A DNA stretch of 40,755 bases from Xylographa opegraphella (taxonomy: Eukaryota), in NCBI GenBank assembly GCA_022813865.1, contig JALDZX010000067.1, positions 62,001 to 102,755 of the forward strand, read 5' to 3'. The position numbers and the translations under genes were made by a program. Shown in pieces: positions 21,807 through 40,755 of this stretch (positions are counted from its first letter, which is position 1; each line of letters starts with the position of its first letter). The notes below the pieces were generated by a model. It was not told the origin of the DNA, did not search any database, and worked only from the letters and a program-made list of their open reading frames with translations.

Positions 21807-23026
21807 CTACCCCTCGCCATCGTCCTCGACAACGACAGCCACCACAACGCAGATATCATCGACTTTACCTCCGCGCCACCCCTCCGCAGGATAATGCCTC
21901 TGCACCTCGCGCGCAAACGGCCCATCACGCCTCGCATCCTCGCTCGCGGCCTTCGCCTCCCCGGCAACGGCGACAGCCAAAAGCGCCTGCAAGCTGCTCT
22001 CGCGGTCCTTGGCCACCCCGCCCTCGACCGTGAGCGCATCCAGCTGCGCCGAAGCGGCTTTGCCGCCCGTCGCCACCCAGCCGTCGAAGCCGAGCATGTA
22101 GCGGCTCACGAGCCTCATCACGTCCGCGGCGCTGAGGTTGTCCCACACGCCGTCGGTGGCGAAGACGAGCACGTCGCCGTGCTGGACGGCGTGCTCGGTG
22201 ACGCTCGCGTCGTGGGGCTGGTCGCTTAGCGGGCGGTGGCCGAGCGCGACGGAGCGGGCGAGCATGCGCGCGGGGAAGATGGAGAGCTGGTAGGGCGTGT
22301 TGAAGGCGTGTGTTTGGGCCGTGGAGGCGAAGTGGACGGCGTGCGGCCGCAGCTGCACGAAGCCCGAGTCGCCGAGGCTGCGCATCTTGTGTCAGTGGAC
22401 GGAACGGGGGGGAGCGTAGATTCTCACTTTGCGACTTGGAACGTGCCGTTGCGGTGCCCGACGGCGATGCAGGCCGTGCTGCCGCCGCCGCGGATCTTCT
22501 TCTCCGCCACGATGACATCGTACGCCTGCTGCAGGAGCTCTCGGGGCCTGAGCCGATCCCCCGCCCACGGCAACGTGCCCGCTTTGCCCGCTATCGCCGC
22601 CATGCGCTCGCACAGCCCGTGCGAGAAGTCCGCGGAGTCGATGCCGGAGTCCGCCCAGCCGCCGACGCCGTCCGCGACGCCGAACGCCACGTCCCCACTG
22701 CCGCCCACTTCGCTGACGAAGAACGCGTCCTGCCCGCTATCGGGCCTCTTCCCGGCGCTCGTGTGCCTGCCGGGCTCGCCGGGCTTGTAGGAGAAGAGGT
22801 CCGTTTTCGGGTTGAAGCGGTGGCCCTTGGCGGAATAGGCGGCCGCGATGCGGAAGCTGAAGGTCGCGGGCGAGGGGGCGGTGGAGTAGGCCGCGCATTG
22901 CTGCTGCTGCTGCTGCTGCGGTACATCGCGGTGGAGCAAAGGGGAGGAGGCGCGGCAGGCGGTGGTGAGGAGGAAGGGGGTGAAGCCGAGGAGGTAAAGG
23001 GATTTGGTGGGCCACATCGCGGCCAT
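21807..23026 (-). CDS. PTC7: PP2C phosphatase Ptc7/Azr1 (2 exons)
   Basis: GQDAFF, GVADGVGGW, GGSTAC, AN|LGDSG across intron 22427-22378, QTHAFNTPYQL, ATDGVWDNL, GGKVDDICVVV. Confidence 0.93.
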
Positions 23027-23272: not shown

Positions 23273-23328
23273 GATGCGGAACGCAAAATGCCAAGCGTAG
23301 ACTGATTAGTCGGCTCCAAATAGCGTAG
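23273..23328 (+). promoter_or_regulatory. Shared upstream motif, copy 1 (between divergent PTC7 and ValRS)
   Basis: Core TGCCAAGCGTAGACTGATTAGTCGGCTCCAAAT (23289-23321) is 31/33 identical to 32290-32322. The duplication is seen directly; regulatory function is inferred. Confidence 0.6.
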
Positions 23329-23391
23329 ATCAGTCTAAGGGTCTAATGTACGATCTACGCAAGATGCGGAACAGAGCAGCACGGGCAGTTC

Positions 23392-23398
23392 TGAGTCA
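23392..23398 (+). promoter_or_regulatory. Candidate Gcn4/CpcA element TGAGTCA upstream of ValRS
   Basis: Exact TGASTCA about 150 bp before ATG 23544. aaRS genes are known Gcn4/CpcA targets, but a 7-mer can occur by chance. Confidence 0.4.
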
Positions 23399-23543
23399 CT
23401 TCACCATCTCCAATATCATTCTCACCACTTCGACTACCTGCATCACCTGCACCACCTTCACCATACAGTCTTTCGCCCTTCGTCTCGGGCACCAGCTGTG
23501 CTGCTATCGTCCACGTCTTGTGCTTTTGTGTATGCCATTGAGG

Positions 23544-26500
23544 ATGGCTTCCACCCAAGCCTCGGCGAAGCCCATGAGCGAGAAGCAACGGCTGAAGCTT
23601 GAGAAGTTCACCAACAAGAAGGAGAAGCAAGAACAGCAGAAACAGCAACAACCCAGTGGTGCTTCCAAGGAGAAAAAAATCAAGAAGCAAGATATTCCTG
23701 CGGTCGAGTCGAAAGATTGGGTCGAGTCGACACCAGCTGGACAGAGAAAGATCTTAAAATCATTGGACGACGACTTCCACAAAGCTTACTTACCTAAGGT
23801 CGTCGAATCTGCCTGGTACAGCTTCTGGGAGGATCAAGGACTGTTCAAGCCACAAACAGAGAAGGATGGCAGTCTGAAGCCGAAAGGCAAATACGTTATT
23901 GCCATCCCGCCGCCAAATGTATGGATTCATGCACGTATTGATGGCGTGGTTACCAGCTAACGCTTTCGCAGGTGACGGGCAAACTACATATCGGACACGC
24001 TCTGGCACTCTCGTTAGAAGACACCCTGATCAGATGGCATCGTATGCGACAATTCTCAACACTCTACATCCCTGGCTGTGATCATGCAGGCATTGCGACC
24101 CAAGCTGTTGTTGAAAAGCAGCTCGCGAGACACCCGAAAGATGGCAAGTCTAAAAGACAAGATTTCAGTCGGGCTGAATTCGTACAGTTATGTCAGGACT
24201 GGAAGGAGGATTACCACCAAGCGATCAACAACACAATACGCAGACTCGGTGTCTCTGTAGACTGGTCGCGGGAAGCCTTCACAATGAGTCCGCAGTTGTC
24301 CAAAGCGGTCACTGAAACCTTCGTGCAGCTCCACTCAGAAGGCCTTATCTACCGAGCCAACAAGCTTGTACATTGGTCATGTCGCCTTTCCACAGCTTTA
24401 TCCACTCTTGAAGTCAACCAGAAAGAGCTCGAAGGGTCGACAAAGCTTGACGTGCCAGGCTATGACAAAAAGATTGAATTCGGAACACTCACGTTTTTCA
24501 AATACCCAATTGAGGGCTCTGATCAAACATTAGAAGTTGCAACAACAAGACCAGAGACGATGCTTGGCGATACTGGCATTGCTGTGCATCCTCAGGACGA
24601 TCGATACAAGGACTTTGTTGGCAGGACTGCGATACACCCGATCATCCCCGGTAGAAAGTTGAGGATCGTCGCCGACGAATATGTCGACAGGAAGTTCGGT
24701 ACTGGCGCTGTGAAGTTAACACCTGCTCATGATCAAAATGATTTCAACCTTGGCAAGAAACATGACCTGCCATTCATCAACATCCTAAACGAGGACGGTA
24801 CTCTTAATAGCAACGCTGGTCCCTATGCCGGAGAGAAGAGATTTAATGCAAGATACGGAGTTATCGAGGAACTCAAGAAACTCGGCCTCTATACGAGACA
24901 AGAGTCGAACAAGATGGTTGTTCCGATATGCAGCCGATCAGGGGATGTCATTGAGCCGCTTCTGAAACCCCAGTGGTGGATGAGAATGGAGCCGTTGGCA
25001 AAACCTGCCATAGCTGTGGTTGAAAGTGGCGAACTCGTCATTCGACCAGAGCTGCAGAAGCGACAATACTTGCAATGGATGCGAAACCTCCAGGACTGGT
25101 GCTTGTCGAGACAACTGTGGTGGGGTCATCAGATACCGGCATATTTCGTCAGTATCGAGGGTGAAGATGAAGGGAATGATGCTGATGACGACTACTGGAT
25201 TTGTGGCAGAACAGAACGGGAGGCTCAACAGAAGGCAGAACAAAAATTCCCTGGCAAGAAAGTAACACTCAGGCGAGACGAGGACGTTTTAGATACCTGG
25301 TTCAGCTCAGGACTTTGGCCGTTTAGTACCCTCGGATGGCCAGACAAGACGGCAGATCTCGAAAACTACTTTCCGAACACGACTCTGGAGACAGGTTGGG
25401 ACATTATACCGTTCTGGGTCAGCCGCATGATCGTTTTCTCTCTTAAATTGACTGGAAAAGTGCCTTTTACTGAGGTCTTCTGCCATGGTTTGATACGTGA
25501 TAGCGAAGGTCGAAAAATGTCGAAATCACTCGGTAATGTTGTTGACCCGCTTGACATAGTTGATGGTATCAGCCTCGACGGTCTGCATCAGAAGCTGCTA
25601 CAGGGCAATCTAGCCCAAAGCGAGGTCAAGAATGCCGAAAAGTACCAGAAGAAGGTCTTCCCACAAGGCATTCCTGAGGTTGGGGCCGATGCATTGCGGT
25701 TCTCGCTCATCAGTTACGCTCAGTCATCTGGCAGCGACATCAATTTCGACATAAAGACGATGTACGGCTACCGAAAATTTTGCAACAAGATCTATCAGGC
25801 CACGAAGTTTGTCCTCGGAAAGCTTGGTGATGATTTTATTCCTCGTGAGAGTAGTGCTTTAACAGGAATGGAGAGTCTACCAGAGAGATGGATTTTGACA
25901 AAAATGAACACCGCTGCAAAACGAATGAACCAGGCACTCGAAGAACGCGAGTTCGCAAGGTCAACCCAGATCAGTCACCGGTATCTGTACGATGAACTGT
26001 TTGATATCTACATCGAGAACTCAAAGTCGATCATCTCAGATGGTATCCCCGAAGAAGTTCGTTCAGCCATGGACACACTCTACACCACAATCGAATCTGG
26101 CTTGCGACTGGTGGCTCCATTCATGCCTTTTCTGACTGAAGAGCTTTGGCAGCGGCTACCGCGCAGACCAGGCAACAAAACATCCTCGATCACGATCGCT
26201 GAGTATCCAGAGTATGACTCGTCCTTCCATGACCCGAGATCGGAGGTAGCCTATGAGCTTGTACTGGGCTGCTCGAAAGGTATTCGTTCTCTCTTAGCGG
26301 ACTATGCCGTTAAGGATGAAGGTGTGGCTTACATCGCACCTCTCAATCAAATGTCACATGACACCGTGTCAGCACAGCTCTCCGCCATCGAGGCACTCAG
26401 TGGCAAGACACCAGTGAAGATCAGTATCTTGAAGGCTGGAGGAACCATTCCCACCGACTGTGCAGTATTTCCTGTTTCCGCTGACGCGAATGCCTATCTC

Positions 26501-26737
26501 GAAGTCAAGAATCGCATACAAGATGCCGCAAAGGAGGCTGACAAGTTCAAGGCCAAGGTGGATGAAGCAAGAAGAGAACATGTCGACATCGACGCCATCA
26601 TGGCAGAGCTGAGCAAGGTACAGGACAAAGATGTCAACGAGGCCAGGCAATCAGCCGAGAGCCGGAAGCGGGACGTTGAAGCCCGATTGCAGGCATTGCA
26701 AGCAACTGTTACGATGTTTGAGAAGATGAAGGTTTAG
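23544..26737 (+). CDS. VAS1: Valyl-tRNA synthetase (divergent, probably a second copy)
   Basis: Exons 23544-23918 and 23972-26737. Motifs PPPNVTGKLHIGH, PGCDHAGIATQ, ATTRPETMLGD, GTGAVKLTPAHD, WCLSRQLWWGH, DVLDTWFSSGLWP, KMSKS, GADALRF, PFMPFLTEELWQ. An in-frame extension runs to ATG 23346/23364. Confidence 0.96.
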
Positions 26738-26820
26738 GCTGGGTATTGACTGTCAAGGAATAGATGTCACAAAATAGGATGGTTTAAACAGTGTGGTCAA
26801 TAGATGGCGCTAATTCCGAC

Positions 26821-26920
26821 TGTCTAGATATCGATCTAGACCGATAGATTAGATTGGCCTAAATGTTGATCTAGACCGATCAGATCGGTGGTTGAAATCT
26901 ATCTAGATGATCTAGATCTT
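26821..26920. repeat. GATCTAGA/AGAT-rich short repeats
   Basis: GATCTAGACCGAT occurs twice, plus several TCTAGA/GATC palindromic units within 100 bp. Confidence 0.5.
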
Positions 26921-27169
26921 TTAAGGACGCCAAAGACATTGCGTCGGGAGGGAGGCAGTTCGGCCGTGGGAACGTCTAATAGCAGGTTGTGCCGGCCTCA
27001 GCCTTGGTGAAAAGTGGGCAAGATGGTAAAAATCAAATGAGTCTGTAATCCGACTCTATCAGCGCCAATTAAGACTTACTGTGAACATAGCCAAGTACTT
27101 GTACACTCTATGGGGCAAAGGCTCGTTTGCAGCCTCCTACGCCACGGTAGCTGCATCTTGTGGCTCTTC

Positions 27170-27860
27170 GACAGCGAATTCAACCAACTCTCTACTGCCT
27201 TCACTACAGTTGCCGCTGACTCAAAAAGGCAAATGCCCACTATTACAACTCTCCTCCTTCACCACCACCCCCATTGCCCTCATTTTTTGAACCTAGTTCG
27301 CTGAAACTCTATGGGCAAGGCTTGATCATCTTCGCTGTAAAGGTACGCAATAGAGTGATACTTGTATGCCACATACGAGAGGCGAATTATGCACCACTGC
27401 AGGGTTCGGGCGGAGTAGTGATACCCAGTGGTTGCGTTGTTCTTCAAAAGAACAGATCCATCTGGCTAAGTTTATGGCGTCAGTGGGGCGAGAAGGACAG
27501 ACAAGGGAAGTTGGAGAAGGAGGAATGAGTTTACCTGTAGGACAGATAGATGATGACCACCATCTCTGCTCATGAGCGATTGCCCCAATGGAAGTATTAA
27601 AGCACACATGTAGAACAGTCCTCCTACCCCTCCCTTCAAACCCAAGTTTTTTCTGTATTTCCTTCCCAAGCTCCCTTGTACAGCCTCTGTGCCGACCATT
27701 CCACCATATGAGTGCAACACTAGGACCACTTCTTTCCCTTCGCTTTCAACAAGTCCAGCCAGGGCAGAGCGGTTAGTGTAATCGTCGTCGTAAAGGTTCA
27801 TTGTTGTTATGGAGTTGTAGGTCGGGAGCTGGGGGCATAGAGCAAAGTAGGACTGCTGTG
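27170..27860 (-). pseudogene. Alpha/beta hydrolase (Abhydrolase_6-type) pseudogene, 5'-truncated
   Basis: ALCPQLPTY..LVESEGKEVVLVLHSYGGMVGTEA..GGVGGLFYMCA, then AYLYSEDDQALP and CNSGHLPF* in shifted frames. The N-terminal GAW/H oxyanion segment is absent. Confidence 0.75.
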
Positions 27861-27869
27861 AGACAGATT

Positions 27870-29830
27870 TCTCTTGCTTGGCCGTGACGCCTGCGCTGTC
27901 GTAGGACGAAGAACTCGTTTACCCGTTCTGAGTGGAGGTAAATACGGCGCTTGAGGGAGACCGTTCAGCAGTACCATTCCCTGCTGAATCAATGTTAGCA
28001 GACGGTCTCTGTTAAGATGAATTCAAGGCGCCAGACGCCTACTTAGACCTGCAGCCTCCGAGTAAAAGCAAACTTTCAGTTCTGAGCCTCGTGAATCGGA
28101 GCAGAGCTAGTTTGTACTCCAACTTGTAAAACTTGGCTCTTCGGTCGTCAGTTCTCTTCCCCGGTCGTAAGCCGAGCCTGTTCAGGTGTCGGTCCGAGGT
28201 ATTAAGTCAAGTTACAGCGCAAAAATGCTGCCAGATCATGACCCCACGCTTCACCCAACCTCGGGTGACATCTTTGCAGGCAATCCTCAGATTATATTCA
28301 TCGACCTCAATTCCGATTCGAAGGACCTTTTCGGCCTCTTTGATGCAGACTGAAGGCGTCGACAGTCCACTCTCCGTCGGTGTTCTCTTCTTGAGCCAAC
28401 GGGGTCCCGGTATCCTCAAGCGGACGTCCCTCCTTTTTGTTGGGGCTCTTTGGCCCGTCGCGTCTTTAGTCCTCGTCGTCCGTCCAACTCTTTTCTTTGC
28501 CTTTCGAAAGAAGGCGATCTCGCCACAGGCGTCTCCCCAATTGGTTCAACGAACGACTCGACGGTCTCACCAATTCTGCCTGCGCAGAGTGAGGAACTGT
28601 CTCTCCATAAGCGACAGGGTGACTCGGGGACGACAGTGTCTGGATGTCGTGATGTGATGATCCCATCATAGTCATCCCCTTGAGTCCACCCATCAACTGT
28701 CCGCCTTGAGTCCTCTTTATCTTCCCTCGGTCTTGCTTTGGTCATCCCTCTTGCGTCTGCTTTCTTTTCTCCCTTGGATCCTGAATGGTCGTCTTCCCAT
28801 CTCTCCGCACCAGCGTCAGAATTGGGTTGAGACCACTGTGACCTTTGTTGGGTGGCATTTGACATTCTTCACACGGCCAGTCTCTACCTGACGAAGGAGG
28901 TGCGGCCTTTCGGTACTCTGACTTCGTCGGTTATAGACTCTAGTAACCGGCCATTGGCTTCGGCGTCTTTGTCAAGCTGCCATGACGCGGCATGCATGCA
29001 ATCCGTAAGGGTTGGAAAGAGTGGCTGTTTGTCGAAAGGCTTCCCAGGGGCAACTGCCCTGCTCATCATCCAGTCGAAGCGATCGCGACTGGACCCATGG
29101 CCATGCTCTCCCAGGTTTCTTGCAGTTCCCTCCGTCTTACAGCAGGAACTTTCCGTCCTCTTGACTCTCCCGCAGCTCGTATATACTGATTTTCGGTCTC
29201 CCTCGTCCGATCGGTTGGGGTCGTCCTGCGCTCGTTTTCGTATCGTAGGGGTTCTACGGCTTCCCAGGCAGTTTCGGGCGCCTTCCCGACGTTCAGTTAT
29301 TGGCCTTATCCAGCACCCTGGTACCGCATTAGAGTTTGCTCCAAACGCGTTCCGTCGAGGTCTTCTCGCAACAGCGTCATCCTTCTTTCTGAGGTCATCA
29401 CGGATTGGGGGATCAGTCGGTCAGTTTGGTGTCCTGGGGAAGCCGTCCATTCCGTTTATTCACATTTTGGACCCATCCCACTATCGGATTCTACCCTTGA
29501 GACTTGGTCTATTGAGTCAGTCTTCGGGCTTCGATCGACGTGAGATTGCGCAAGAGATGAGGTTTCCTGGCTTTTACTCATCACCCCAAGCTCGTCGACG
29601 GCGGACTGACGGTACCTCATATATACAGGCTGATGACACACCGTATCTAGACGCGATGGTCAGTTTCTCCCGCTCCTCAAGATGTCGAGCAGGAGTCGGT
29701 TGCAGAGTGTGAGGAAGAGCAAACACCAGGAGAGAACGAGGGAGCCGGTCCTTTATACCAGAAGGGAGTGCGTTTGAGTCATCTTTTGCGGCTTTCGATC
29801 GGTGTGTCATGCCCCACACCGCATGCCCGA
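27870..29830 (-). pseudogene. Unidentified decayed coding relic
   Basis: Protein-like fragments in changing frames (KPFDKQPLFPTLTDCMHAASW.., EAEKVLRIGIEVDEYNLRIACKDV.., R/E/D-rich tracts) broken by stops. No family recognised. Confidence 0.3.
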
Positions 29831-29844
29831 TGTCGATCGTCGAT

Positions 29845-32139
29845 TCACAAACTGACGAGATTAGCGGCATCTCTGATTTTGGCCTGGATGATCTCCATCC
29901 ATCGCTTGACGTGGTCAGCATGACAGTCTGAGAACAGAAGAATTGAAGAAACTGCTTACCCGAGCTTCTTCCAAGTCTCCTGACTCAAGGCTCTTGAAAA
30001 GGTGAGGGAACTCTGGCGGGTCTGAGTAGAAAGCAGAAAATTCATAGATTAGATGCGCGCCTTTATAGCAGAATTGGCGTTCAAGATTCAAGTACTTTTG
30101 ATTCACCTGCTGAATTGTCTCATCGGTCTCTGTTGATCTGAGAGAGGACGCGTAAGCATCCAAGATTATGCTTGCATTGTGAAATTCTGCAATAGCATTC
30201 TCTAGAGGCCTAAGGTCAAAAGATGCCGAGCTTGGGATAGATTCTTTGATCCTTTCGACATACTTCTGCATTGCGACACCGTAGTCAGCCGCCTTGATTT
30301 GCAGGACGGGACTCTCGGACAAGTAAGCTGTTATCAAGGACCAAATCTTTGCAGTGGTGACGTGGTACTTCCATCCTGGATCTCCAGTGGTATTCATCCA
30401 TGTGAAGGTATCAAAGTTTGAGTGGTAGGGCCAATAAGTGGCACCGAAGCTGAGGTCAGAGGTCGACACACAAGCAGTCTCTAGGAATGGGATGGCATCT
30501 CCTCCTCCTGCCGCGACCATCTCTCCTCCCCAATGATCAAAGACCGTTCCACCTTCGGGAGAAGCAACTACCCTTGTGGCTCTGTGAATAACTTCTCGCA
30601 GGAGTGGGGTTGCTTTAACCTGGAACAGGGGCCCTGCTGCTGCAACGACGACGTTCAGATATGCTACGGCAGTCTTCTGAAGCCAGGGGAGATGAGAGGC
30701 TATCCAAGGCTCGGATCCAATCTGTCCGGTTTCTGCGCCTTCCCAGCTGACAAAAATGATGGTTCGTCGAGGCCGCCATCCCGTTCTGTATGCCGTTGCA
30801 AAGCTTCGAACGACTTCCATCAATGCTGCAGCACCACTGATAGAATCACCGGCCCCGGGTCCCCACGAGTCGCGGTGATTTCCTAGAATAATTACCTCAT
30901 CCTTAATGGAACCTCTGATGATGCCAAATGTTTGGTGCACGTCCTTGGTTGGAAAGCTCATTTGGTTATTTAAATTCAAGACAATATGCGACGGCGATGG
31001 ACCGACATAATATTCCACTTCTTTGTAGTATAGGCCACCCCCATGCCAATCGCTCCTCATGTCAGCTGCTTTGGGGCCATGACCATGGAGCGCTTTGAGG
31101 AGTGGTACTGCGTCGCTGTAGGACAGCGGAAGTGAGGGAATGGACTCTCCTGGTACACTGGGATTACCGGCACTGGCGTTGCCTGATCGTGATAATTCAT
31201 TATCTTAACCAGATGAGCGTAATGAACTCAAGCACAAGACTCACGGATTAAACCTATTGAACCTCTCTCAATACAGGTCTCTGGGCGAGCTGGTCCGTCT
31301 GGATATCCTTTGTACCCATGCCCTTCTGTGATGTTGCCGTCCTGTTGTGGATCCGTATAAATCAAAACCCCAACAAGGCCTCTCTCTGCTGCAGTGCTCA
31401 TTTTCGCCCCTCGCCAGACCATGCCAGATTTGACGATAGCTATCTTCCCTCTGAAATCGACGTAGTTTTGCTCCAAGTCATCGTAATCTTGCTCACGGCC
31501 AAAGTTTGCATATACGAACTGTGCGGTCACATTACCGCTCGATGATTGCCCATGGAAAGCGGGAGTCCGAATCTCTGACGGGTCATTGAATGGCAGCTCT
31601 TCCATCAACTTGGCTTCGTACATCACTGACGGGAATCGAGTCACTGAGGTGTCTATTAACGCCAGTCGTTGAAAGACCGGTGCGCTTATCGATGCATTGT
31701 ATTTGACGATCTCCGTCTCTGGTATGCCAAAGTCTTCCCATTTCTTCTTGGTCCAGAGGCCTTGTGCTTTGCCCTCGCCTGGGAAGTGGCTTTGCGAGGT
31801 GTAGTAATAGCTCCAGTCCGCGGCGCGGGACGTATCGAGCTCAGAGAGCAGGATGGTCTCCAAGTTTGAAAGCGGGAAGCCGTCTTTAAGTGTTAGGCTG
31901 GCGAAAAGATAAGATCTCCAGGGCTGGAAAATAGGCTGGTAGAGCAGGTATTGTGGGCCTCCTGAGAGTGCTGTCAGGGCGACTGTTGAGACCGCAATGG
32001 CGAAGAACAAGAAACGCCTTGTCGATTTCCATTGGAGCGCCGTTTTTGGAATACGGGTGTCTTGATCAATCTCATGCCATCCCTGGAGGTCGGTGGGTTT
32101 GACCGTCCGTGGAATCTGGGAGCCTGATATGCACAGCAT
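29845..32139 (-). CDS. Glutamate carboxypeptidase II / M28B homolog (TM-PA-M28-TfR dimer) with altered catalytic site
   Basis: Exons 32139-31245, 31182-~29960 and 29904-29845. N-terminal TM, PAFHGQSSSGNVTAQFVYANFG, LIYTDPQQDG, YPDGPARP, IPSLPLSYSDA, GNHRDSW, GWRPRRTIIFVSW, YHSNFDTFTWM. Confidence 0.9.
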
Positions 32140-32273
32140 GATTACTTCAAAAGCCCGAGGGTGGTATTGGCATCGTCCTCGTATGCCGAGGTTGAAGTGT
32201 GCCCTCGTACAGACACAGTCTACGACAGCGGACCGGATTATCGAGCTATGTAATCCGTATATGGAATGAAGCA

Positions 32274-32329
32274 GGTGAGGAACGCCAAGTGCCAAGCATA
32301 GACTGATTAGTCAGCTCCAAATTGTGTAG
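32274..32329 (+). promoter_or_regulatory. Shared upstream motif, copy 2 (between divergent M28 peptidase and MFS)
   Basis: TGCCAAGCATAGACTGATTAGTCAGCTCCAAAT (32290-32322), preceded by GGAACGC as in copy 1. Confidence 0.6.
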
Positions 32330-32856
32330 CCCTTAATGGATCGATCCGTCTCCCCCGGCCACTAAGATAGGGTGTTCCGCCCGTAAACCAGTTGAAAAGA
32401 TGCCTTTCGCCTCTTAGCCCAGCGGGCTTTAAGTGGCGGGTAACTGGTGAGCGTGCGGCTAGGCACGCTAGTGAGTGGGTAGTCAAAGGATAATTCAGGT
32501 CTCGAGCTGCGTAAGAGACGCCCCAACTGTGCACGAATTCTGCTTTTAAACCTTCGTACGGAGGTACTTGAGGAAGATTCTTGATATAAAGTGACTCCCG
32601 TGTACCTGATCTGCGTTTTCGTGGATATGTAAATTTTGTATGAACTGATCTAGATCAGATTGCTGCTTCAAAGAATTCAAATAGATTATAAAAGGTTTTA
32701 GGGGTCCAATCTGATCTGATCCATCTATTGGCCATAACGAAACGGATAAAATTAGCTCCGACAGGAGGATTTGTCTTTGCGCCTGACGGATTACCTAATA
32801 TTAGGCTACTACGCTTATCAAAACCCCATCATGCTCAAACTTCGTCTGTGATCCTG

Positions 32857-34723
32857 ATGGCCCCAACCACAGTCATGCTGGAAGACAGTCCTCTGCTATT
32901 GAATTATGGTGATGAGCGCCATGATGATGTTCTGGGCGAGACGGTGGAGGAAGAGAGTGCGTCTCAAGATGTGCAGCGAGATGCTAGATATAGATCCGCC
33001 TCGTCACGCTATGTACTTCAGTTGTGCGTCCTGACGCTTATTATCGATTTCTGCCAGTCTTCAGTCTGGGCTCCTCTGACGGCGGTCTTCGAGGAGATCA
33101 TCTGCAATCATTACTACTCCTCAACCGTTCACAGTCTTTTTCTCCTTCAACAAGACTGCAAGGTCATCCCTGTACAGCATGAGCTCGCACTTGTAAAAAG
33201 ATACAAAGACGCTTTCAGCCAGATACCAAGTATGTTGCCACGTTGTATTTTGCCGGTGATCGAATGTGGAGAAGATCCCAGGGCTTGATAACTGAATGTC
33301 GCGTACTCAGGCATCGTCCTTGGTATCCCACTTGGCCTATTAGCAGATCGCATAGGTCGAAAACCAGTGATATTACTATTCCTGCTCGGAATATTCCTCA
33401 ACGATTCATGGGTGAAAATTGTGTGTACGTGAATCCTTTATGAGGTGTGATACGATAGGAAGATTCGAAATCCTTGTTTAACGTTTAATTAGGCCTCTTT
33501 CCAAATCAGCTTCCTTTGCGTCTGGTCTGGCTTGGGCCCCTTCTAAAAGCCATTGGGGGCGGGGCGAATTTCGGCGCGTCGATGCTTTTCACAGCGGCTG
33601 ATGTTATCGAAGAGAAGGATCTGTAAGTTTCACGTACTACTCATTCTGAACTAGCTGACCAATGTCCTGGGAATCAGGGTTGATGCCTTCCTAAAGCTGT
33701 CTGCTATGGAAATGGTTGTGCAAATTGCGGGCGCCCCTTTGGTGTCGGCACTCATGAGCATCAGTAATTGGTATCCCCTTGGACTCTCCTCAATTCTCCT
33801 TGTGGTAGCGGGTCTCATCGCTCTTCTGCTTCCAGAGACAAGTCCACACCACCGAGGGACCATGTTCAAACCCCCAAACTCAGTGCACGGACAAACTTTC
33901 AATGCCGGCCGCAATGAAGAGGCCCAGCTAAAAGAATCTTATTTTCAAATGGTCCTGAAGCTGGCGCGTCGCTCTTACACGACATCAGGAGACTTTTTGA
34001 AAAATCCAGGCATTCTGTTTCTCTTGCTGTGTTTCTACTGGCTGCATGGGGAGCGCACGCGTGGGCACTGCTTTTGCAGTACGTTTCCCAAAGATTTAGA
34101 TGGGAATTCAGCACGGTGAGACCGAGTTCTATTTCATTTATACTCAATTTTACTTGGCGAATCAGACGAGGAAAAGTTTAAGAGAAGGAAACTGATTTGT
34201 AAAATAGGCAAACCTCTTATTTTCCCTACGCAGCTGTATCACTCTTTTACTTTCCCTGGTCATCATGCAAGCAATCGACAGATTTCTTCAGCGGAGGCTA
34301 CGCATCAAGTCTGCTCAGAAAGATCTGTTGCTCTCCATAGGAAGCTGTATCTTGATCATTGTTGGAGTTGCCGTAGTTGGGCTAGCACAAAGCTCAAGTG
34401 TTATGGTGGCAGGCGTCGCTGTCTCCGCGCTGGGGTCTTCGCTTTTAGTTTCCTTTCGATGTGCTATGATTGCTCTATTCCCACAGAGCCCAGTGGCATC
34501 GCTGAATGCGGTTGCTGCGATAGCACAAAGCGTTGGCGTGCTCATTTCTGGCCCGATCATAGCCGCAATATATGGTTGGGGACTCTCTAAAGGTGGTATC
34601 TGGACCGGAGCTCCATTTCTGCTTGCAAGCGGTCTGCACATCGTAGCGCTTGTCATCATATTCTATCTACGTCTAACTGATGTTCCAAAGCAAGTCTCTT
34701 TACTTGAGAGTCATGAGTCATGA
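32857..34723 (+). CDS. MFS efflux transporter (UstT-like secondary-metabolite type) with an apparent frameshift
   Basis: FEEIICNHYY..CKVIPVQHELA, GLLADRIGRKPV, LPLRLVW, LLLQYVSQRFRW, GLSKGGIWTGAPF; four GT-AG introns. Frame change at about 34032. Confidence 0.85.
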
Positions 34724-34825
34724 TAGCAGCGGCTATTGGCGTGCTGATATGTTTAAGAAGCTCTTGTCTGCAATCTCTTTTAGGTATCTCGAAGGGATGA
34801 AATGAAGTGAGATCAGAAGGTCAAG

Positions 34826-35006
34826 GGCACGGCGCTAAGGATGGGATATAGAGTCTCAGTAACTTTAGAGCTTTTTCCCCTTCTTTGTAGTAGACTCGTT
34901 GTACTATTTGGCCTCGGGCACGGCGCTAAGGGTGTGGTATAGAGGTTCAGGAGCTTTCTTCCCTTCTATAATCCATATACTTGAATCCTTATACTATTTG
35001 GCTTCT
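34826..35006 (+). repeat. Imperfect tandem duplication of about 90 bp, possibly LTR-derived
   Basis: Two units each start GGGCACGGCGCTAAGG, contain TATAGAG..GAGCTTT..CCCTTCT and end TACTATTTGGC. Confidence 0.65.
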
Positions 35007-35259
35007 CTACAAATATCGATTCTTCGATGCTATGTTAAAGACCCGTCGACAATGAGGTCGTACTAAGATTACGTGTATAGAAGAGGAATGCTGCAACTAC
35101 TGCAGGTTTCTCCAAGCTCATCGCATAGGACAGTGCGGTCTTGAATAAAGGTACACAGTGTACGGAGTACCTTTCTGACTTAGATATTTTTTGCTTATTT
35201 CTAATATCAATAGCTGCTCTTCTCCAAAGCCGGCTTTTTTGACTTACAGCGAAACTATC

Positions 35260-36168
35260 TTAGGGAATTCCTAGTCGGTCGACATGGGTTGAATGGAGCT
35301 GGTAGTCGCGACCCCGAGCCATGCTCAACGCCTGCTCTAAGTTGAATGACGCCACATGTAGCAGATCCTCAAGGGGGCTCGGCTTTGATGCCACCACCTC
35401 TGCGGTTAGGGTGTCAATGTCATTTGCAACGTTAGGGAGTTTCGATACAAAGTAGTCCCGGTAGGCTTCTACTACCAACTTGGTGGCATCATATTCTAAG
35501 GTCTGAGTCCGCGATATACGGCCCGTTGTGGAGTGAATGCGGTACCCATACCCTGGGCCTTCGATAAACCCAATCTCTGAGCGTTCATTTCGCGCCCATC
35601 TGCGCGCGAGCAAAGAGACGCCGAATGCCCAGTCCTGCCACTTCGGCACAGTCTCTATGTAAAGTAAACCATTTAAGATCTCGTTACGGCGATACACGAT
35701 AGCGATCGGTACGTGATGTTTTCGCGCGACCATTTCTTCACGTAGGGGATACGAGGAAATGGTCAAACCGTGGAAGTCTCCAAACATTCTCACCAGCGTA
35801 TGTACGAATGCGATGTCATCATTCGCAGAGAGGATCCGCGTTGCTTCAGATAGAAAGCTTTCGTACCCGGAGACTGGATACAAAACGTCATCACCATCCA
35901 TACAAACAACAAAATCACCGGTAGCTGCCTTCAAGCCTGTGTTGCGAGCGACTTGGACGCCACGATTTCTTTCATGACGAATGATCTTGAGATCCGGCTC
36001 AGAGTCTAAGTCGCTAATCACTCGGATGCTTGTCTCGTCTGTTGATCCATCGTCGACAATGATCATTTCAACCTCAATGCCAGTTGAATTCTCGCGGATC
36101 GAGGAAACACAATCGAGTAGGTATAGCCCAGTATTGAAGCTAGGAATAATAATGGAGACCTGATGCAT
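35260..36168 (-). CDS. Soluble GT-A glycosyltransferase family 2, intronless, bacterial-like (302 aa)
   Basis: MHQVSIIIPSFNTG..CVSSI..IIVDDGSTD..NRGVQVARNTGL..GDFVVCMDGDD and KWQDW. No intron or TM segment. Confidence 0.9.
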   Translation of the reverse strand: MHQVSIIIPSFNTGLYLLDCVSSIRENSTGIEVEMIIVDDGSTDETSIRVISDLDSEPDLKIIRHERNRGVQVARNTGLKAATGDFVVCMDGDDVLYPVSGYESFLSEATRILSANDDIAFVHTLVRMFGDFHGLTISSYPLREEMVARKHHVPIAIVYRRNEILNGLLYIETVPKWQDWAFGVSLLARRWARNERSEIGFIEGPGYGYRIHSTTGRISRTQTLEYDATKLVVEAYRDYFVSKLPNVANDIDTLTAEVVASKPSPLEDLLHVASFNLEQALSMARGRDYQLHSTHVDRLGIP

Positions 36169-37006
36169 CGCTAGATGATTTAAGGGGGACGCGAAATTCC
36201 ACCCAATAACGTCAAGGACGATGTTGGTAAGGCGACACTCGCACTCTGCGCGGTGACGCGGTTCGGAAAGATGGTTCCTCAGAGGAAAAGGGAAATGCTC
36301 AGGATCGAGAGAAAGGGGGTTATATTGAGGTCTTCTGGAAAGTGTCTTGGATTCAAAATTTTGATCGAGATGTTCTATGTAGGTTCTGAACTGCAAGTTT
36401 CAGCCCGAATATGCATAGGGTTTGCTTGTACGCCTGATTAGCTCCCTGAAAAGAAATAAAAGACTATATAGGAGAATAGAGATCGCGTATCCAGGGCTAC
36501 CACAATAGAGGATTTATCTATCGTAGTATCGGAGTAGTAGATTATGTTATATTCAAAGACTTCGCGGCTGTGAGAATGACAAGGGTATATCAGACAGATA
36601 TCTAAGGTCAAATAGCGTGGAGGATCATCAGATTACGGCGCTAAAACGTAATCCTCTGCGATATCCCGATGCCCCCATTCCGCAGTCTTACAACATACGT
36701 AGTTAATGAATTGAGTCCTCATAATTTAGCAAGTAAATATTTGAATACAAACGCGTAACATGTCTTAAAATGAGCCAAAACGGTCAAGAATTGCGTGCGT
36801 GGTGACCTCGCAAAGTTTTTGTTGACTTGCCCGGGCGCAAAAATCAGGCGAAATAGGGGCAGTCTATACAGAAAATGAGGGAGGAATTTACAAGGACTCT
36901 TTCTCCAACTGTTGTAGGCACATTTGTATGTAAATTAGTGGAGAAAATGTCTTCAATTGATCAGAATTTATTGGAAAATAACTATGTACAATTTGAACAA
37001 TTTTAC

Positions 37007-39862
37007 TCACCCTGCCCGATCCCTCTGTGCCTTCGCTGCTTTCAGGGCCTTAATAACCTTGTCCAGCGAGGCTCCAGGGGCTCCAGAGGCCATTCTCTCT
37101 GCCTCCATCTCCCCTACCACCGCACCAAGGTCCCCGTTTACCCCTGCCCGGCGCCTGACCTCGTCGATGATAACGCGGCGAGTACTATAGTACTGCCGCT
37201 CCTTCACCGACCTCCAGGCCGTGCCCCACACCCGATCCAGCTCCTCCACCGACGGCATTCCACCAAAGCCCACAGTCCACTCCCTCCAGAGTCCCGGGAT
37301 ATCCTTTACATCCCTCGACAGGCGATACGACGGCGCCGCCGCAGCGGCGGCGAGGGCGGCGATCGGCGACGGGGCGAAAGGCGCCGGTCCCGTCAAGCTG
37401 ACGGGACCACAAGGCGGACCACAAGACGGAGGAGGCTCGAAGGAGGGGCGGAGAGCAATCCGCACGCCGCCAAAGGAAGGCGACGGCGACTCGTCGCGGT
37501 GCCGCAGGGTTCTATCAAATCCCTGCGGCAGCAGTCTCGATCGACCCGGGGTAAAGGTCAGGCTTAGCTGACCGCCGAGGGAGTCCTCGACGGAGCTGCG
37601 CAAAGCCTTCACCTCCGCGGCTAGATCACTGATCTGCTTCGCGTGCTTCGCGTGCTTCGCGTCCCCTGTCTGGATGATACCAGTTAGAGTCCGCAAGCGC
37701 TCCGCGACCGCAGGCAGGGCCTTCTCTACCATCATCGAGTGTGGATCCTCCTCTTTTACTAGCTGAACAGCTCGGCGCATTTCCTGCGCGAACGCAGCGT
37801 ACTCCGAGGAGGCGAAAAGGGGGTCGCGGAAGATGGGGTGGTCCGGGAAGGCGTCCCGGAAGCAAACAGAGTCCTATAGTGTAATTAATTAGCTAGTTCA
37901 ACTCAAAGAAGGAGGCATACCTGTAGAAAAACCTCTCTGAGCCTCATCAAGAGGTCCAGAAAGGCACCAGCCGCACGGTTCGGCTCCACGGTCTCTGTCG
38001 CGCCGGGTAGCTGCATATGCGCAGCGAACCAGCCGTCCAGAGCCGGCCAGACACAACGGGAAAGGGAGGCGGAGGGCTTCACGGTCGCCCGAGGAAGAAA
38101 GTAGGAACCGGGATAGTCGGGGTCGAAGTCCGCTATCCCGCACATAAACCCGCGCGGCAGGGTCGTTAGATAGCAGCCAGTCATCTGGTCTGCGTTCCAA
38201 CGACCAGCGCGGCGAATCTGTAAACGTAGTTAGTAAATAGATATGGAAGGGGGGGGGGGGCTTACCTGGTCCTCGCTGATACCAGCATCCTCCGCATGCT
38301 TCGGCGCCATCTCCCGCGGAAGATGCCCAGTCCGAGAGCCTATGATGCCGGCAGCATCATAAATCTTGCGGATCCAGGACCCAGCCGTGGCGTCGGACAG
38401 CCGCTCGACGAGGTGCGCCTGATCCCGATGCAGAACTTTCATACTGTACCAGTTTTCACTGGTACGAAAGCACGGGAAGGGCTCGCCGGAGGACTGCCAC
38501 CGCCAAAAGAACCAGAAGGCAAGGCCGCCGACGGGGCAGGAGAAGACGTTTCGATGGCGCAGGGCGCCAGCTCGCTCGGCGCGGCCGTGCTGGTTGGTCT
38601 TGCCTATACCTACTGTTAGCCAACGCCTTCTACAGGGTGCTGGACAGCCCGAACACGGGCTGTCCAGCACAAACGAGCAAGCAAAGAAGCAGAAAAAAGG
38701 AGGGGGTTAGAAAGGAGGCGGAGGGGGGGACCGGCGCCTCGAAACAAGCAAGCAAGGGAAGAACTCGAGGACTCACTGTTGTCCATATGGGCTATCAGAG
38801 CCCAGTACTTGCTTCCAGGAGGACCTTCTTTCGGCAGCGGCATCGGCAGCAGATCGGGCAACTCCAGCCCAAGCCGGTTGCCCAACCGCATGCACATGAA
38901 GTGCCCAAGCAGAAAATCAGTCCGGGTGCGCAGGGCAGCCCCGACTGACTTCTGCGCCGTCCAAGAGAAGGCGGCGCGAGCGACGTCGGGTATCTGCTCA
39001 GGAGTATACCCATCGATGACGCTGCCTATGCCGCGGTCCACAAATTCGGACCGTCGGCGGGCATGCTCGCGCCGAGAGACGCTGATCTGTATCGCCTTCA
39101 AGGGAACACCTTGAGGGCGAGGGGCCTTATGCACCAGCTGCGAAACTTGGTGCGCCCACAACTCGTTGATCGCGGAGACATAGCTCCGAATGGTGTTATA
39201 TTGCAACACCAATTCGGAGCCATGCTCCTCGTCCTCGGAGCCAGAACCAGCGTCCTCTTCCTCCTCCCGCTCCCCCCCCGCTGCCGCCGGTTGTCCCCCC
39301 GCTGCTGCCCGTCTCTTTTTGACCTCCGCGAGGCCTTCCTGCTTCGCCAGCTTCTCCTAGTCTCTTTTCCTCTTCTGCCTCTTCTTCTCCGCCGCAAGGC
39401 GAGGACCGCCCGGGGCGCGCGTTCTGCTACCTGCTCTTTGATGAAGAGCAGGAGCTTCCCTTCGTCGACCCAGTCGCCCGGGAGGTATGCCGACCCCGAC
39501 GCAGGACCGCCGAAGCCCTGCGCTGCGCACCATTCCTGCGACGAAGTTAGCAAGCGGAAAGCGCAGAAGAGAAGAGAGGGGGAGGGGGGGGAGGGGGGGT
39601 GCGCGACGCAAAACAGAAGGGGAAGAGGAAACAGACGTACCCTCCACTCCTTCTGCTTCGGGCGATACGCCTTCGTAGTGTTCTTGGGTCTTACGGAATC
39701 GTGATTCCGTAAGACCTCCAAGACGGCCGCTTGCACGCGGAGGTCGACGAGGCGCTGCACCGCAGCAGCATCTTCCTCCGCCGTGCCGGCGGCCACAACA
39801 GGCTCGGATCGGGGAGGGGGGAGGCCAACGGAGGCAGGGAGGACGTTCACTATAGTAGCCAT
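37007..39862 (-). mobile_element. Crypton (CryptonF-type) tyrosine-recombinase transposon, inactivated
   Basis: Spliced reading gives RPKNTTKAYRPKQKEW, VDEGKLLLF, TIRSYVSAINELW, DFLLGHFMCMR, GKTNQHGR..RHRNVFSCPVGGLAFWFFWRW, GHLPR, IRRAGRW, MTGCY, FPDHPIF and a C-terminal GCR1_C-like YRLSRDVKDIPGLWREW..SVEELDRVWGTAWR. Frameshift at about 39410 and TAG at 39357-39359. Confidence 0.88.
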
Positions 39863-40755
39863 TAGTTAGTAAGAAGAGAGAAAAGAAGAAGCAGAAAGGG
39901 GAGCAGAAACCAGAGCGACCTGGGGGCGAGATGTTCGATCAATTGCCCCCGCAGCCAACGGCGGATCCGCGTGGAAGTCCTAAGGTCTGCTGGTAGTAGC
40001 AGACCTTCGAAAGCACTGTTAGCGCGGTCATCAAGGTGTAATCGGGAGGCCTTACACACCAAAACACCAGACCTTAATAAGGTCTGGTGGTGCAATCCGG
40101 CAGCCCGAACGGTAGAGGAATTCGCTGTGAAGGGGGGTGTCATCTGAGGTCTTGGCGTCATTCGATGATGCCAAGACCTCGGATACCAAAGGATATCATT
40201 GGGGTTGGATCAAAGCTAATCCTTGAAGAGTTTTCCAGAGTTGGTGTGTTCTTCTGTCCAAGTAGCTTCCCAGGCGCCAAGCCTTGAACTTGAACGGGCA
40301 CGGGCCTGATTTCCGGATTTTCCGTCTGACCCGGAGGGGCACAGGTGCAGCCACCTTCTTTAAAGCGATGTATAAGTTCAGCTACAAGGCGCCGCCAGAA
40401 AGTGAGTTTACTTGCCTAATCGGGGGATAATACATGGCCAGGGTCTGGCCAATCAGTCCGCCAGGATTGTCCCCACGTAATATAATGATAATTATTATTA
40501 CGCCCGGAGGCACTAAACCTAAAGGGCTCTACTACGCTAATTACATAATTCCGCTTCCTTCTTTGCCGACATAAACACCTAAATAACCCTTACAGATTGC
40601 TAGCACATATTATATCTTTTGGTATTGAATTTAGGGCGCAGTCTCACGTGATCACTAATTGACTAAGCAACGCTAGAACCTCTATAACGTGATTTATGTA
40701 ACGGCGTGTTACATGGCACCTTAACAAGTGATAGACGGAACGGGACTAAAGCGCG

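Follow-up and report, generated by a model that had tools for sequence, protein, structure and literature searches.

A bacterial-type GT2 glycosyltransferase gene and a second valyl-tRNA synthetase in Xylographa opegraphella: a possible means of protection from a small molecule directed at ValRS

The 40755-nucleotide stretch of Xylographa opegraphella DNA analysed in the present study (the window) carries an intronless gene for a short GT2 glycosyltransferase of bacterial appearance and, 8.5 kb away in convergent orientation, a gene for a divergent valyl-tRNA synthetase (ValRS). This arrangement raises the question of where the glycosyltransferase came from and whether the two genes have anything to do with each other. 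A sequence-only reading of the same DNA had proposed that the enzyme was horizontally acquired and might inactivate a toxic adenylate mimic, an overall interpretation that our data partly support.

The glycosyltransferase and its origin

The GT2 coding sequence occupies positions 35260..36168 on the minus strand and runs from ATG to stop (stop codon at 35260-35262), encoding 302 amino acids; this is exactly the ORF that had been proposed, to which we add the strand. The motifs recorded by the sequence-only reading (VSIIIPSFN, VDDGSTD, ARNTG and DGDD) are all present, with IIIPSFN at residue 6 and the others at residues 38, 74 and 91 respectively, and residues 5-98 match the Pfam model PF00535 (Glycos_transf_2; E-value 9.5e-28, 97.7 bits, cut-off 23.3). 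The highest Kyte–Doolittle mean over 19 residues is 1.34, which indicates no TM (transmembrane) helix, and AlphaFold predicts a compact globular protein with the Rossmann-like GT-A fold (pLDDT 95.4), in keeping with the soluble enzyme first suggested. As homologues of 301-310 amino acids, bacterial ones among them, align colinearly with 100% of the protein, and as the in-frame stretch upstream of the ORF contains no ATG, the gene needs no intron, and the description of it as intronless also stands.

In an alignment of 88 family members, D91, D94 and D179 are invariant, and D39 and D40 are nearly so. From general knowledge of GT-A enzymes, we take VDDGS (residues 38-42) to supply the probable donor-binding acidic residues, DGDD (residues 91-94) to be the DXD-type motif and the invariant WQDW (residues 177-180) to be the candidate catalytic base. 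The conserved acidic motifs expected of a GT2 enzyme, i.e. the nucleotide-binding DD, the DXD and the candidate base, are thus all present. In addition, dN/dS values of 0.10-0.26 show purifying selection to have kept the gene in the ascomycete lineage. The protein is an intact, soluble GT-A glycosyltransferase, functional-looking and predicted to be of the inverting, UDP-sugar-dependent kind. Searches for a more specific family gave little: 24 NCBIfam families matched the GT2, none near its curated cut-off, and a genome-contig search with the protein returned only distant GT2s, as partial matches of 28-44% identity. Source annotations of the homologues read 'glycosyltransferase involved in cell wall biosynthesis'.

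The fungal relatives are 70-86% identical with the window protein and come from nine named taxa among the matches listed, which we take to represent five classes, with Trichoderma and Claviceps contributing one species each and with Truncatella angustata and Trichoderma chlorosporum among the carriers; next come Rhizobium proteins at 64% and 55%. In an unrooted tree from a 'quick' search, the 29 fungal rows grouped as one clade (SH-aLRT 96) within the bacterial part of the tree; its successive outgroups were Rhizobium rows, the nearest bacterial sister being a Rhizobium mongolense sequence on a 9.8-kb contig, and then other bacterial rows. An unrooted 'quick' tree of 55 rows agreed. A topology test did not reject a single fungal clade (p-AU 0.558), and the nearest Atlas clusters are bacterial save for one that is phage-derived. 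The GC content of the gene (0.499; GC3 0.536) does not differ from that of the neighbouring ValRS gene (0.493; GC3 0.539), a similarity that points to long residence without speaking against transfer. Together, the nested phylogeny and the patchy fungal distribution support horizontal acquisition of the gene by an ascomycete lineage from bacteria, as the sequence-only reading had envisaged.

Bacterial loci of the family and their ValRS genes

The company kept by the bacterial homologues proved informative about the possible role of the family. Among 36 bacterial-type metagenome loci, a Gfo/Idh/MocA-fold oxidoreductase was found within the fetched flanks in 27 and a ValRS in 17, three pairs of the ValRS-bearing loci being near-duplicates; where at least 4 kb was present on both sides, ValRS occurred in ten of 14 loci and was absent from four. 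The 450-amino-acid oxidoreductase partner matched nothing in Pfam at E<=0.01 and was assigned by Foldseek (E-value 8.5e-17, probability 1.00), with a VEKP-type motif. A profile of it found no match at E<=1e-30 in 401 genomes of one phylum, a set that held no positive control genome, so that the result speaks at most for rarity. After removal of redundancy, the 32 remaining loci contained a SAM methyltransferase in 13 cases, a TupA-type ATP-grasp enzyme and a UDP-glucose/GDP-mannose dehydrogenase in five each, and an AMP-binding enzyme and an ABC exporter in four each. These counts place the bacterial GT2 family at the core of a rare predicted operon, which also contains the oxidoreductase, in many cases a SAM methyltransferase and in most a ValRS, presumably an extra copy; ligases of the ATP-grasp or adenylating kind, a UDP-sugar dehydrogenase and ABC exporters are occasional additions. 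Rhizobium azibense and a strain of Mesorhizobium loti with the genes on a plasmid are among its carriers. None of the PADLOC anti-phage models matched the fungal or bacterial GT2, the oxidoreductase, the ValRS or the ATP-grasp protein.

All 13 of the aminoacyl-tRNA synthetases (aaRSs) tested reached a valS model, and they fell into four types, three of them bacterial or archaeal (PRK05729 type, five; PRK13208 type, five; alt_ValS, two; eukaryote-type, one). The tested copies are full-length, have anticodon-binding domains and reach the curated valS cut-offs. Three loci have two ValRS genes, one of these loci being a near-duplicate of another, and one GT2–ValRS instance lies on a Mesorhizobium plasmid. 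A ValRS recurs in this way beside modifying enzymes or exporters across lineages, and its linkage with the GT2 appears to be independent of ValRS ancestry. That the linkage was rebuilt with four ValRS types, the eukaryotic one after the GT2 had entered fungi, argues for real functional coupling.

The same loci bear on two other readings of the family. It could comprise ordinary envelope-glycopolymer GT2s, working on teichoic acid, teichuronic acid or exopolysaccharide, with a meaningless ValRS neighbourhood, in which case the fungal enzyme would decorate a wall or secreted glycan. The top structural matches of the GT2 are indeed wall-teichoic-acid and polysaccharide enzymes, UDP-sugar dehydrogenase and TupA-type ATP-grasp genes, such as those nearby, typically go with uronic-acid polymers, and the source annotations name cell wall biosynthesis. 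However, ValRSs of four evolutionary types recur beside the GT2, whereas the sampled genomes with a match have a single valS (exactly one copy in each of 39, from 41 sampled); the annotated bacterial loci contained no recognizable flippase, polymerase or priming transferase; the GT2 itself is soluble; and its conserved fungal partner, described below, is a predicted efflux pump rather than wall machinery. We consider the glycopolymer reading improbable.

More weight, although still well on the unlikely side, attaches to a biosynthetic role, in which the GT2 would build a valine-containing glycoconjugate for which ValRS supplies Val-AMP or Val-tRNA, and the fungal GT2 and its transporter would make and export a simpler glycoside. 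aaRS-like enzymes do serve as biosynthetic ligases in the mycothiol (MshC) and ascamycin pathways. The bacterial operons have a biosynthetic look, with their methyltransferase, ATP-grasp, dehydrogenase, AMP-binding and exporter genes, and in many loci ValRS shares the strand of the GT2 and lies close to it (114-1507 bp in L014, L021, L033 and L034). Yet full-length synthetases with anticodon-binding domains exceed what an adenylating ligase needs, and no aminoacyl-tRNA-dependent transferase family was recognized among the bacterial neighbours, several of which have no Pfam match. The fungal loci also speak against it, as set out below.

The fungal neighbourhood and the ValRS paralog

Beside the GT2 in the window lies a multi-exon gene for an MFS transporter on the plus strand (32692..34723, these limits and the exon boundaries being approximate), with MFS_1 matches on two exon ORFs. 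Over 1.7 kb it is 74.7% identical in nucleotide sequence with the gene beside the GT2 in another fungal locus, L008, and exon by exon the two are 52-73% identical in amino acid sequence. Only seven longer homologues were found at E<=1e-10, one of them named 'Efflux pump ustT-like', and for three of the seven the longest contig is equal in size to that of the GT2 from the same species. These data show that the fungal GT2 forms a conserved pair with a predicted MFS efflux pump. Directly upstream of the GT2 is a recombinase-like/GCR1_C ORF set (37007-38706). The sequence-only reading had placed the gene amid repeat relics, a description that holds only in part: apart from this set, just two short pairs of direct repeats occur in the interval 26000-40755.

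Little else in the fungal loci resembles the bacterial operon. No core synthase (PKS, NRPS, terpene cyclase etc.) was present among the window ORFs scanned (25 + 17). A search of the window, L008, L009 and L010 for the bacterial oxidoreductase gave only tblastn noise at E<=10 and nothing by HMM, and no homologue of the methyltransferase, ATP-grasp enzyme or UDP-sugar dehydrogenase reached E<0.01 in the same four loci. With no other pathway enzyme there, it would seem that the fungus kept the GT2 and not the pathway, which weakens the biosynthetic reading. An unrelated M28 peptidase gene separates the GT2 from the ValRS gene, and the other window genes near the latter, encoding HscB and a PRKCSH-domain protein, are ordinary.

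The ValRS gene lies on the plus strand at 23310..26737, with a first-exon ORF at approximately 23310-23960 and a main ORF at 23942-26737. Its product scores 913 bits against TIGR00422 (valS; cut-off 612), and retains HIGH at residue 16 and KMSKS at residue 525 of the main ORF; 12 sites diagnostic of its clade were identified. Identities to other fungal ValRSs are bimodal, at 71-93% within the paralog clade and 58-62% with housekeeping VAS1, and one other fungus has both types (P0315, 75%; P0336, 60%). The paralog clade (SH-aLRT 100) has a long stem of 0.36 and a shallow, taxonomically scrambled crown. The source names for both types are 'Valine--tRNA ligase, mitochondrial'. We conclude that the fungal ValRS is probably a genuine extra paralog. 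That the GT2 lies next to an aaRS paralog, as the sequence-only reading put it, is correct as to the clade and true only loosely as to the distance of 8.5 kb.

Closer linkage is found elsewhere. In L010, a 76.6% identical ValRS copy lies 297 bp from the GT2, and GT2–ValRS pairs on the same contig are probable in two further fungal assemblies, co-occurrence of GT2, MFS and ValRS genes on one contig in other fungi being judged solely by equal-sized longest contigs. L008 contains the GT2 and MFS genes, and the 10 kb examined on one side of them hold no ValRS; the paralog is also present in genera with no GT2 match (e.g. Aspergillus, Penicillium and Botrytis). The GT2 and the paralog thus appear to be separable, as resistance determinants are, and the wide occurrence of the paralog without the GT2 counts further against a joint biosynthetic role. 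It might be supposed that the paralog is an organelle-dedicated or redundant housekeeping duplicate, close to the GT2 by an accident of synteny. The 'mitochondrial' source names, the intact HIGH and KMSKS motifs and neighbours of the HscB and PRKCSH kind would suit such a duplicate, but its patchy distribution and incongruent crown, the independent adjacency in L010, the probable same-contig pairs and the bacterial linkage make this explanation very improbable. No tRNA-Val gene was found in the window or in 16 loci.

One substitution may connect the fungal and bacterial copies. On the helix carrying the residues equivalent to I491 and W495 of Tth ValRS, all but two of the 68 fungal paralogs (66) have proline in place of phenylalanine, as do the ValRSs of the Mesorhizobium plasmid and of L034, whereas phenylalanine is retained in all 30 housekeeping proteobacterial ValRSs and in 45 of 48 housekeeping fungal ones; six of eight bacterial-type cluster ValRSs also keep it. 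The parallel change at this pocket-helix site is suggestive of inhibitor insensitivity in the paralog. Site 687 (the cysteine of FCDWY) was considered as a second site of convergent resistance and set aside as weak; because it varies in three actinobacterial comparators, it may reflect phylogeny.

We favour, at a little under an even chance, a protection module against a small molecule directed at ValRS, in which a glycosylating enzyme and an efflux pump are combined with a replacement target. The bacterial operon would make or handle a glycosylated small molecule acting on ValRS, e.g. a mimic of valine or valyl-adenylate, and the extra ValRS would be the insensitive replacement. In the fungus, the GT2 might transfer sugar from a UDP-sugar to the compound and so inactivate or mask it, the MFS pump would export it and the ValRS paralog would keep tRNA-Val charged, three independent layers that would act together. 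A bolder version, which we regard as rather doubtful, is that bacterial operons of this kind yield undescribed natural ValRS-directed glycosylated antimetabolites, and that fungi captured the GT2 by horizontal transfer and joined it to an efflux pump and to an insensitive ValRS of their own that spreads horizontally, forming a cross-kingdom mobile protection island.

A duplicate of an essential enzyme beside small-molecule enzymes and exporters is the signature sought in target-directed genome mining, here aimed at ValRS, and the linkage in bacteria and fungi hints at an undescribed toxin-and-resistance system with that target. If the coupling holds, the locus opens a way to a new chemotype of antibiotic or antifungal and to the mechanism of resistance against it, and would show clearly how a gene from bacteria became part of a multi-gene trait in a fungus; should the GT2 prove to act on glycopolymers, what is left is a transfer from bacterium to fungus that is well documented but ordinary.

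Comparison with known systems

The kinship suggested by the sequence-only reading was with NucGT and AvpGT, which, together with ScaGT, are soluble GT2 nucleoside 3′-O-glycosyltransferases of Streptomyces; NucGT (35.5 kDa) prefers sulfamoyl-adenosine to adenosine. Like the window GT2, these enzymes (PDB 9jma and 9jn3) are soluble, single-domain proteins of approximately 300 amino acids with a GT-A fold, and they act on adenosine-like small molecules, the chemistry that the ValRS linkage would suggest for the window enzyme. AvpGT is a detectable homologue (E-value 1.6e-8 over residues 4-186, or 2.7e-18 with the family profile), and its structure aligns over a wider stretch of the model (residues 2-292) than that of any other listed match of similar size. 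These alignments, and the fit of an adenylate mimic to ValRS linkage, would favour a GT2 of this type whose role is to mask a toxic analogue of adenosine or of an aminoacyl-adenylate. However, AvpGT was no closer than GT2s of other function, and the nucleoside-antibiotic cluster with a partner glucosidase that might have been expected was not recognized: the scanned window ORFs and the 75 neighbour ORFs of 13 bacterial loci contained no glycoside hydrolase, nucleoside or sulfamate pathway domain. We give a nucleoside-specific role a low probability.

The closest solved structures are the glycopolymer GT2s TarP (6h4m), TarS (5tze), RmlT (8bz6), K4CP (2z86) and WrtF (9oml), with heparosan synthase also among them. 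Unlike the window GT2, TarP, TarS, RmlT, K4CP and WrtF act on polymers and carry extra oligomerization or second catalytic domains, and the window family differs from TarP-type enzymes in having a C-terminal 200 residues with no PDB sequence match and in its neighbours, i.e. ValRS, the oxidoreductase and efflux pumps. The 450-amino-acid bacterial partner shares its fold with glycoside 3-dehydrogenases, namely glucuronide-3-dehydrogenase (8tdi), DgpA (7xre/9m37) and GFOR (1h6d), at 9-14% identity across the matches listed, and is approximately 100 residues longer.

Self-resistance by a second synthetase is familiar from IleRS for mupirocin, LeuRS AgnB2 for agrocin 84 and SerRS for albomycin. 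The portions accessible to us of the literature on ValRS, self-resistance and gene clusters, and of a self-resistance review, describe no ValRS self-resistance paralog, and we found no paper on GT2–ValRS linkage in the literature on ValRS paralogs, glycosyltransferases and gene clusters. As an aaRS-inhibitor review names no natural ValRS inhibitor in its accessible part, the proposed ligand class is hypothetical. More generally, aaRS copies are described as self-resistance markers in antibiotic clusters, as with ThrRS for the vibriomycins (PMC13515044, accessible portion). The present system differs from such cases in that GT2–ValRS linkage is found in bacteria as well as in fungi and its fungal form has no recognizable biosynthetic core; like them, it features an essential aaRS in a divergent, probably extra copy near genes for small-molecule enzymes and exporters, in one instance on a plasmid.

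A conserved glycosyltransferase of bacterial origin

The sequence-only reading had described a soluble family-2 glycosyltransferase (GT2) lacking transmembrane helices, and this observation is confirmed: the ORF lies at 35260..36168 on the minus strand (302 codons plus stop) with no in-frame ATG upstream of its start, the claimed motifs fall at residues 6, 38, 74 and 91 of the 302-aa protein, Pfam Glycos_transf_2 matches residues 5–98 (E 9.5e-28) and the top 19-residue hydropathy mean is 1.34. No NCBIfam model came close to its own cut-off, and an AlphaFold model from an 88-sequence alignment was compact (pLDDT 95.4). The ‘repeat relics’ said to surround the gene held up in part: minus-strand ORFs at 37007–38706, perhaps extending to ~39900, match GCR1_C (E 1.8e-17) and NDC10_II (E 7.5e-17), a pair typical of Crypton-type tyrosine-recombinase elements, but just two short direct-repeat pairs occur in 26000–40755. 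This block, immediately upstream of GT2, has a GC of 0.58–0.65 (0.39 in the GT2 upstream spacer) and may be a mobile-element relic bordering the segment that GT2 shares with an MFS gene.

GT2 is conserved, under selection and of bacterial origin. A word-indexed search returned 371 relatives at E≤1e-5; among the best 120 of these, the top matches (approx. 30 full-length) were 59–86% identical, nearly all full-length ones having 301–310 aa, and the named ones belonged to nine fungal taxa (Amylocarpus, Chaetomidium, Diatrype, Trichoderma chlorosporum, Truncatella, Dactylellina, Claviceps citrina, Cladorrhinum and cf. Caloplaca), followed by Rhizobium mongolense (64%), R. azibense (55%), Nocardia (43%) and Streptococcus agalactiae (39%). 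An exhaustive representative search gave 261 proteins at E≤1e-30, with approx. 40 full-length relatives of ~300 aa among the 150 listed. The protein of the lichen fungus cf. Caloplaca sp., at 379 aa longer than GT2 and with an additional PF20516 domain call, may represent either a fusion or an artefact of gene modelling.

The suspected horizontal acquisition was supported by phylogeny (quick searches, unrooted): in a 102-row tree 29 fungal rows form one clade (SH-aLRT 96) among bacterial rows, its successive outgroups being R. mongolense (putatively bacterial, on a 9.8-kb contig), the L010/P0030 lineage and R. azibense. As locus L010 is fungal by its valyl-tRNA synthetase (ValRS), we tested whether all 28 fungal rows of a separate tree fit a single clade; the constrained tree was 0.86 log-likelihood units better (p-AU 0.558), and one transfer therefore suffices. 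The bacterial family is broad (GC 0.26–0.70 across its loci) and the fungal clade shallow, from which we infer that transfer probably ran from bacteria to fungi. The dN/dS values of 0.10–0.26 among the copies in the window and the fungal loci L008, L009 and L010, together with GC and GC3 matching neighbouring genes, argue at the sequence level for a functional gene of long residence.

Bacterial loci with ValRS and an oxidoreductase

By tblastn of plasmids, a GT2 homologue (38.9% identity) was located on a Mesorhizobium loti plasmid, in a one-strand run of genes for, in this order, a 461-aa hypothetical protein, GT2, an FAD oxidoreductase, an NAD(P) oxidoreductase, a sugar-phosphate isomerase and a valine-tRNA ligase. 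Metagenome contigs, scanned by alignment, yielded 39 loci, 36 of them bacterial-type, with the 461-aa homologue in 27/36 and ValRS in 17/36; where both flanks reached at least 4 kb these figures were 13/14 and 10/14, ValRS being absent from L015, L026, L028 and L042. Two ValRS genes each were found in L011, L036 and L044, the latter two being near-duplicates, as are L033/L038 and L034/L035. All 13 aaRSs tested reached a curated valS model, namely PRK05729 (n=5), PRK13208 (n=5), alt_ValS (n=2) and, in L010, eukaryote-like TIGR00422 (n=1), against a baseline of a single valS in every one of 39 genomes that gave a match (41 sampled, one phylum). GT2 is physically linked to ValRS, and this linkage has been rebuilt with four ValRS types; that the neighbourhood is chance synteny seems very improbable. 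Tandem ValRS-like genes scoring 984 and 525 bits to TIGR00422 occur in G010 (C4:10407-13004 and 13171-15528; L048, L052), whose genome shares its phylum with the Acidimicrobiia MAG G002.

Clustering of 331 neighbouring ORFs from 32 non-redundant loci gave GT2 (28 loci), the oxidoreductase, i.e. the 461-aa family (25), ValRS (13), an SAM methyltransferase (13), TupA-type ATP-grasp (5), UDP-glucose/GDP-mannose dehydrogenase (5), SDR (4), an ABC exporter (4) and an AMP-binding enzyme (4); no PADLOC model matched. No Pfam entry matches the 461-aa family, and its model (pLDDT 90) adopts a Gfo/Idh/MocA oxidoreductase fold, with glucuronide-3-dehydrogenase 8tdi (E 8.5e-17), GFOR, NAD-dependent glycosidases and DgpA as top structural matches and Atlas neighbours in clusters carrying PF01408 in 46–78% of members. 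As its profile matched 0/401 genomes (one phylum), the bacterial operon appears rare. Mobile-element and defence-type genes (Schlafen AlbA_2, AbiEii toxin, SLOG-family protein, phage-type integrase and PD-(D/E)XK transposase) on the flanks of several bacterial modules, at L017:10970-11890, L027:2102-2725 and 9167-9685, L033:13263-14516 and L034:161-727, suggest that it travels on mobile islands.

The fungal ValRS paralog and its neighbours

The aaRS paralog noticed near GT2 is a ValRS (approx. 23310..26737, plus strand; TIGR00422, 913 bits; 37% identical to the plasmid ValRS). Its relatives are bimodal, with approx. 72 clusters at 71–93% identity, including Rutstroemia (91%), Dactylellina (87%), two Amylocarpus copies and Xylaria, Penicillium, Aspergillus, Trichoderma and Botrytis species, and ordinary VAS1 at 58–62%; Dothideomycetidae sp. 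11243 has one of each kind. In a 48-row tree (quick search, no mixture model) the paralogs form a clade (SH-aLRT 100, stem 0.36) nested within the radiation of Pezizomycotina housekeeping enzymes, whose rows sort by class, whereas the shallow paralog crown ignores taxonomy. Paralogs share a mean identity of 0.79 with one another, housekeeping enzymes 0.67, and members of the two groups 0.58, and 12 sites separate the groups at ≥90% within each.

The window paralog has kept both HIGH (residue 16) and KMSKS (residue 525). Site 490 aligns with Thermus thermophilus F493, on the helix carrying I491 and W495, two residues that reportedly line the valine pocket (1GAX work); the site is proline in 66/68 paralogs and phenylalanine in 45/48 fungal and 30/30 proteobacterial housekeeping ValRSs. 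Proline also occurs in two unrelated cluster-linked bacterial enzymes (Mesorhizobium plasmid and L034), phenylalanine being kept in the other six. Site 687 (Cys of FCDWY) is cysteine in 48/48 and 30/30 housekeeping enzymes and phenylalanine in 65/68 paralogs and the L013/L016/L017 lineage, but is given little weight as it varies in three actinobacterial comparators.

In L010 the paralog lies 297 bp from GT2 in convergent orientation, and the window pair, 8.5 kb apart, is likewise convergent. Longest contigs of equal size for both genes in Dactylellina (263,641) and one further assembly (71,216) suggest a common contig there. GT2 also forms a fungal pair with the MFS gene (approx. 32692..34723, plus strand), which recurs beside GT2 in L008 (74.7% nucleotide identity over 1.7 kb); its seven longer homologues, one named ‘Efflux pump ustT-like’, all come from the patchy species set of GT2, and longest contigs are equal in size for the two in Truncatella, Cladorrhinum and T. 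chlorosporum. Within a few kb of the L008 pair are a DDE_1 transposase fragment (6743-7186) and a large ABC transporter (8705-11878).

Between the window paralog and the MFS–GT2 pair, an M28 peptidase with PA and transferrin-receptor-like dimerization domains (29915–32310, minus strand) is probably outside the module, since it is missing at corresponding places in L008 and L010. A second GT2-superfamily gene (15093–17990, plus strand; Glyco_trans_2_3, PF13632, E 1.2e-48, with DUF7928) encodes a large polysaccharide-synthase-type protein unrelated to the 302-aa GT2. Of two high-GC 1-kb stretches (0.68–0.70), 8001–9000 overlaps a WD40-repeat ORF (8054–9265, minus strand), and scanned ORFs in 22001–23000 had no Pfam match.

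A putative protection module and comparison with known enzymes

The partners also occur separately (ValRS paralog without GT2; GT2–MFS pair without nearby ValRS), so each seems useful by itself. Such separable parts behave like resistance determinants, and we therefore favour, tentatively, a putative module that protects against a small molecule directed at ValRS, in which modification (GT2), efflux (MFS) and target replacement (ValRS paralog) would each help alone. Passages of a 2026 review (PMC13515044) describe aaRS copies as self-resistance probes, with ThrRS as the example; where an aaRS-inhibitor review deals with ValRS, it mentions no natural inhibitor of this enzyme, and our search of articles found none tying ValRS to self-resistance, to a paralog or to a cluster with a glycosyltransferase. 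A biosynthetic role for ValRS is a distinctly less likely reading, which the methyltransferase, ATP-grasp and AMP-binding neighbours in bacteria would suit; the window, L008, L009 and L010 contain no bacterial pathway genes, and scanned window ORFs include no PKS, NRPS or terpene synthase.

Sequence matches of GT2 to solved structures, and likewise its family profile, are confined to the N-terminal nucleotide-binding part, the best being K4CP chondroitin polymerase (E 5.3e-20). In structural comparison Leptospira GT2 6p61, K4CP, WrtF and TarP score 22.4–23.2, and an envelope-glycopolymer role for GT2, for which these matches speak and the ValRS linkage does not, seems improbable to us. We hold it equally doubtful that GT2 glycosylates nucleosides, as had been proposed from NucGT and AvpGT. 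The background to that proposal is sound, in that the NucGT passages of PMC7017864 describe a 35.5 kDa enzyme preferring sulfamoyl-adenosine. Since AvpGT structures exist (9jma and 9jn3), the proposal could be tested: AvpGT matched at E 1.6e-8 over residues 4–186 (E 2.7e-18 with the family profile), below K4CP, and in Foldseek its entries ranked 27 and 41 (TM 0.57). AvpGT thus has fold and size in common with the window GT2, but not a particular kinship.
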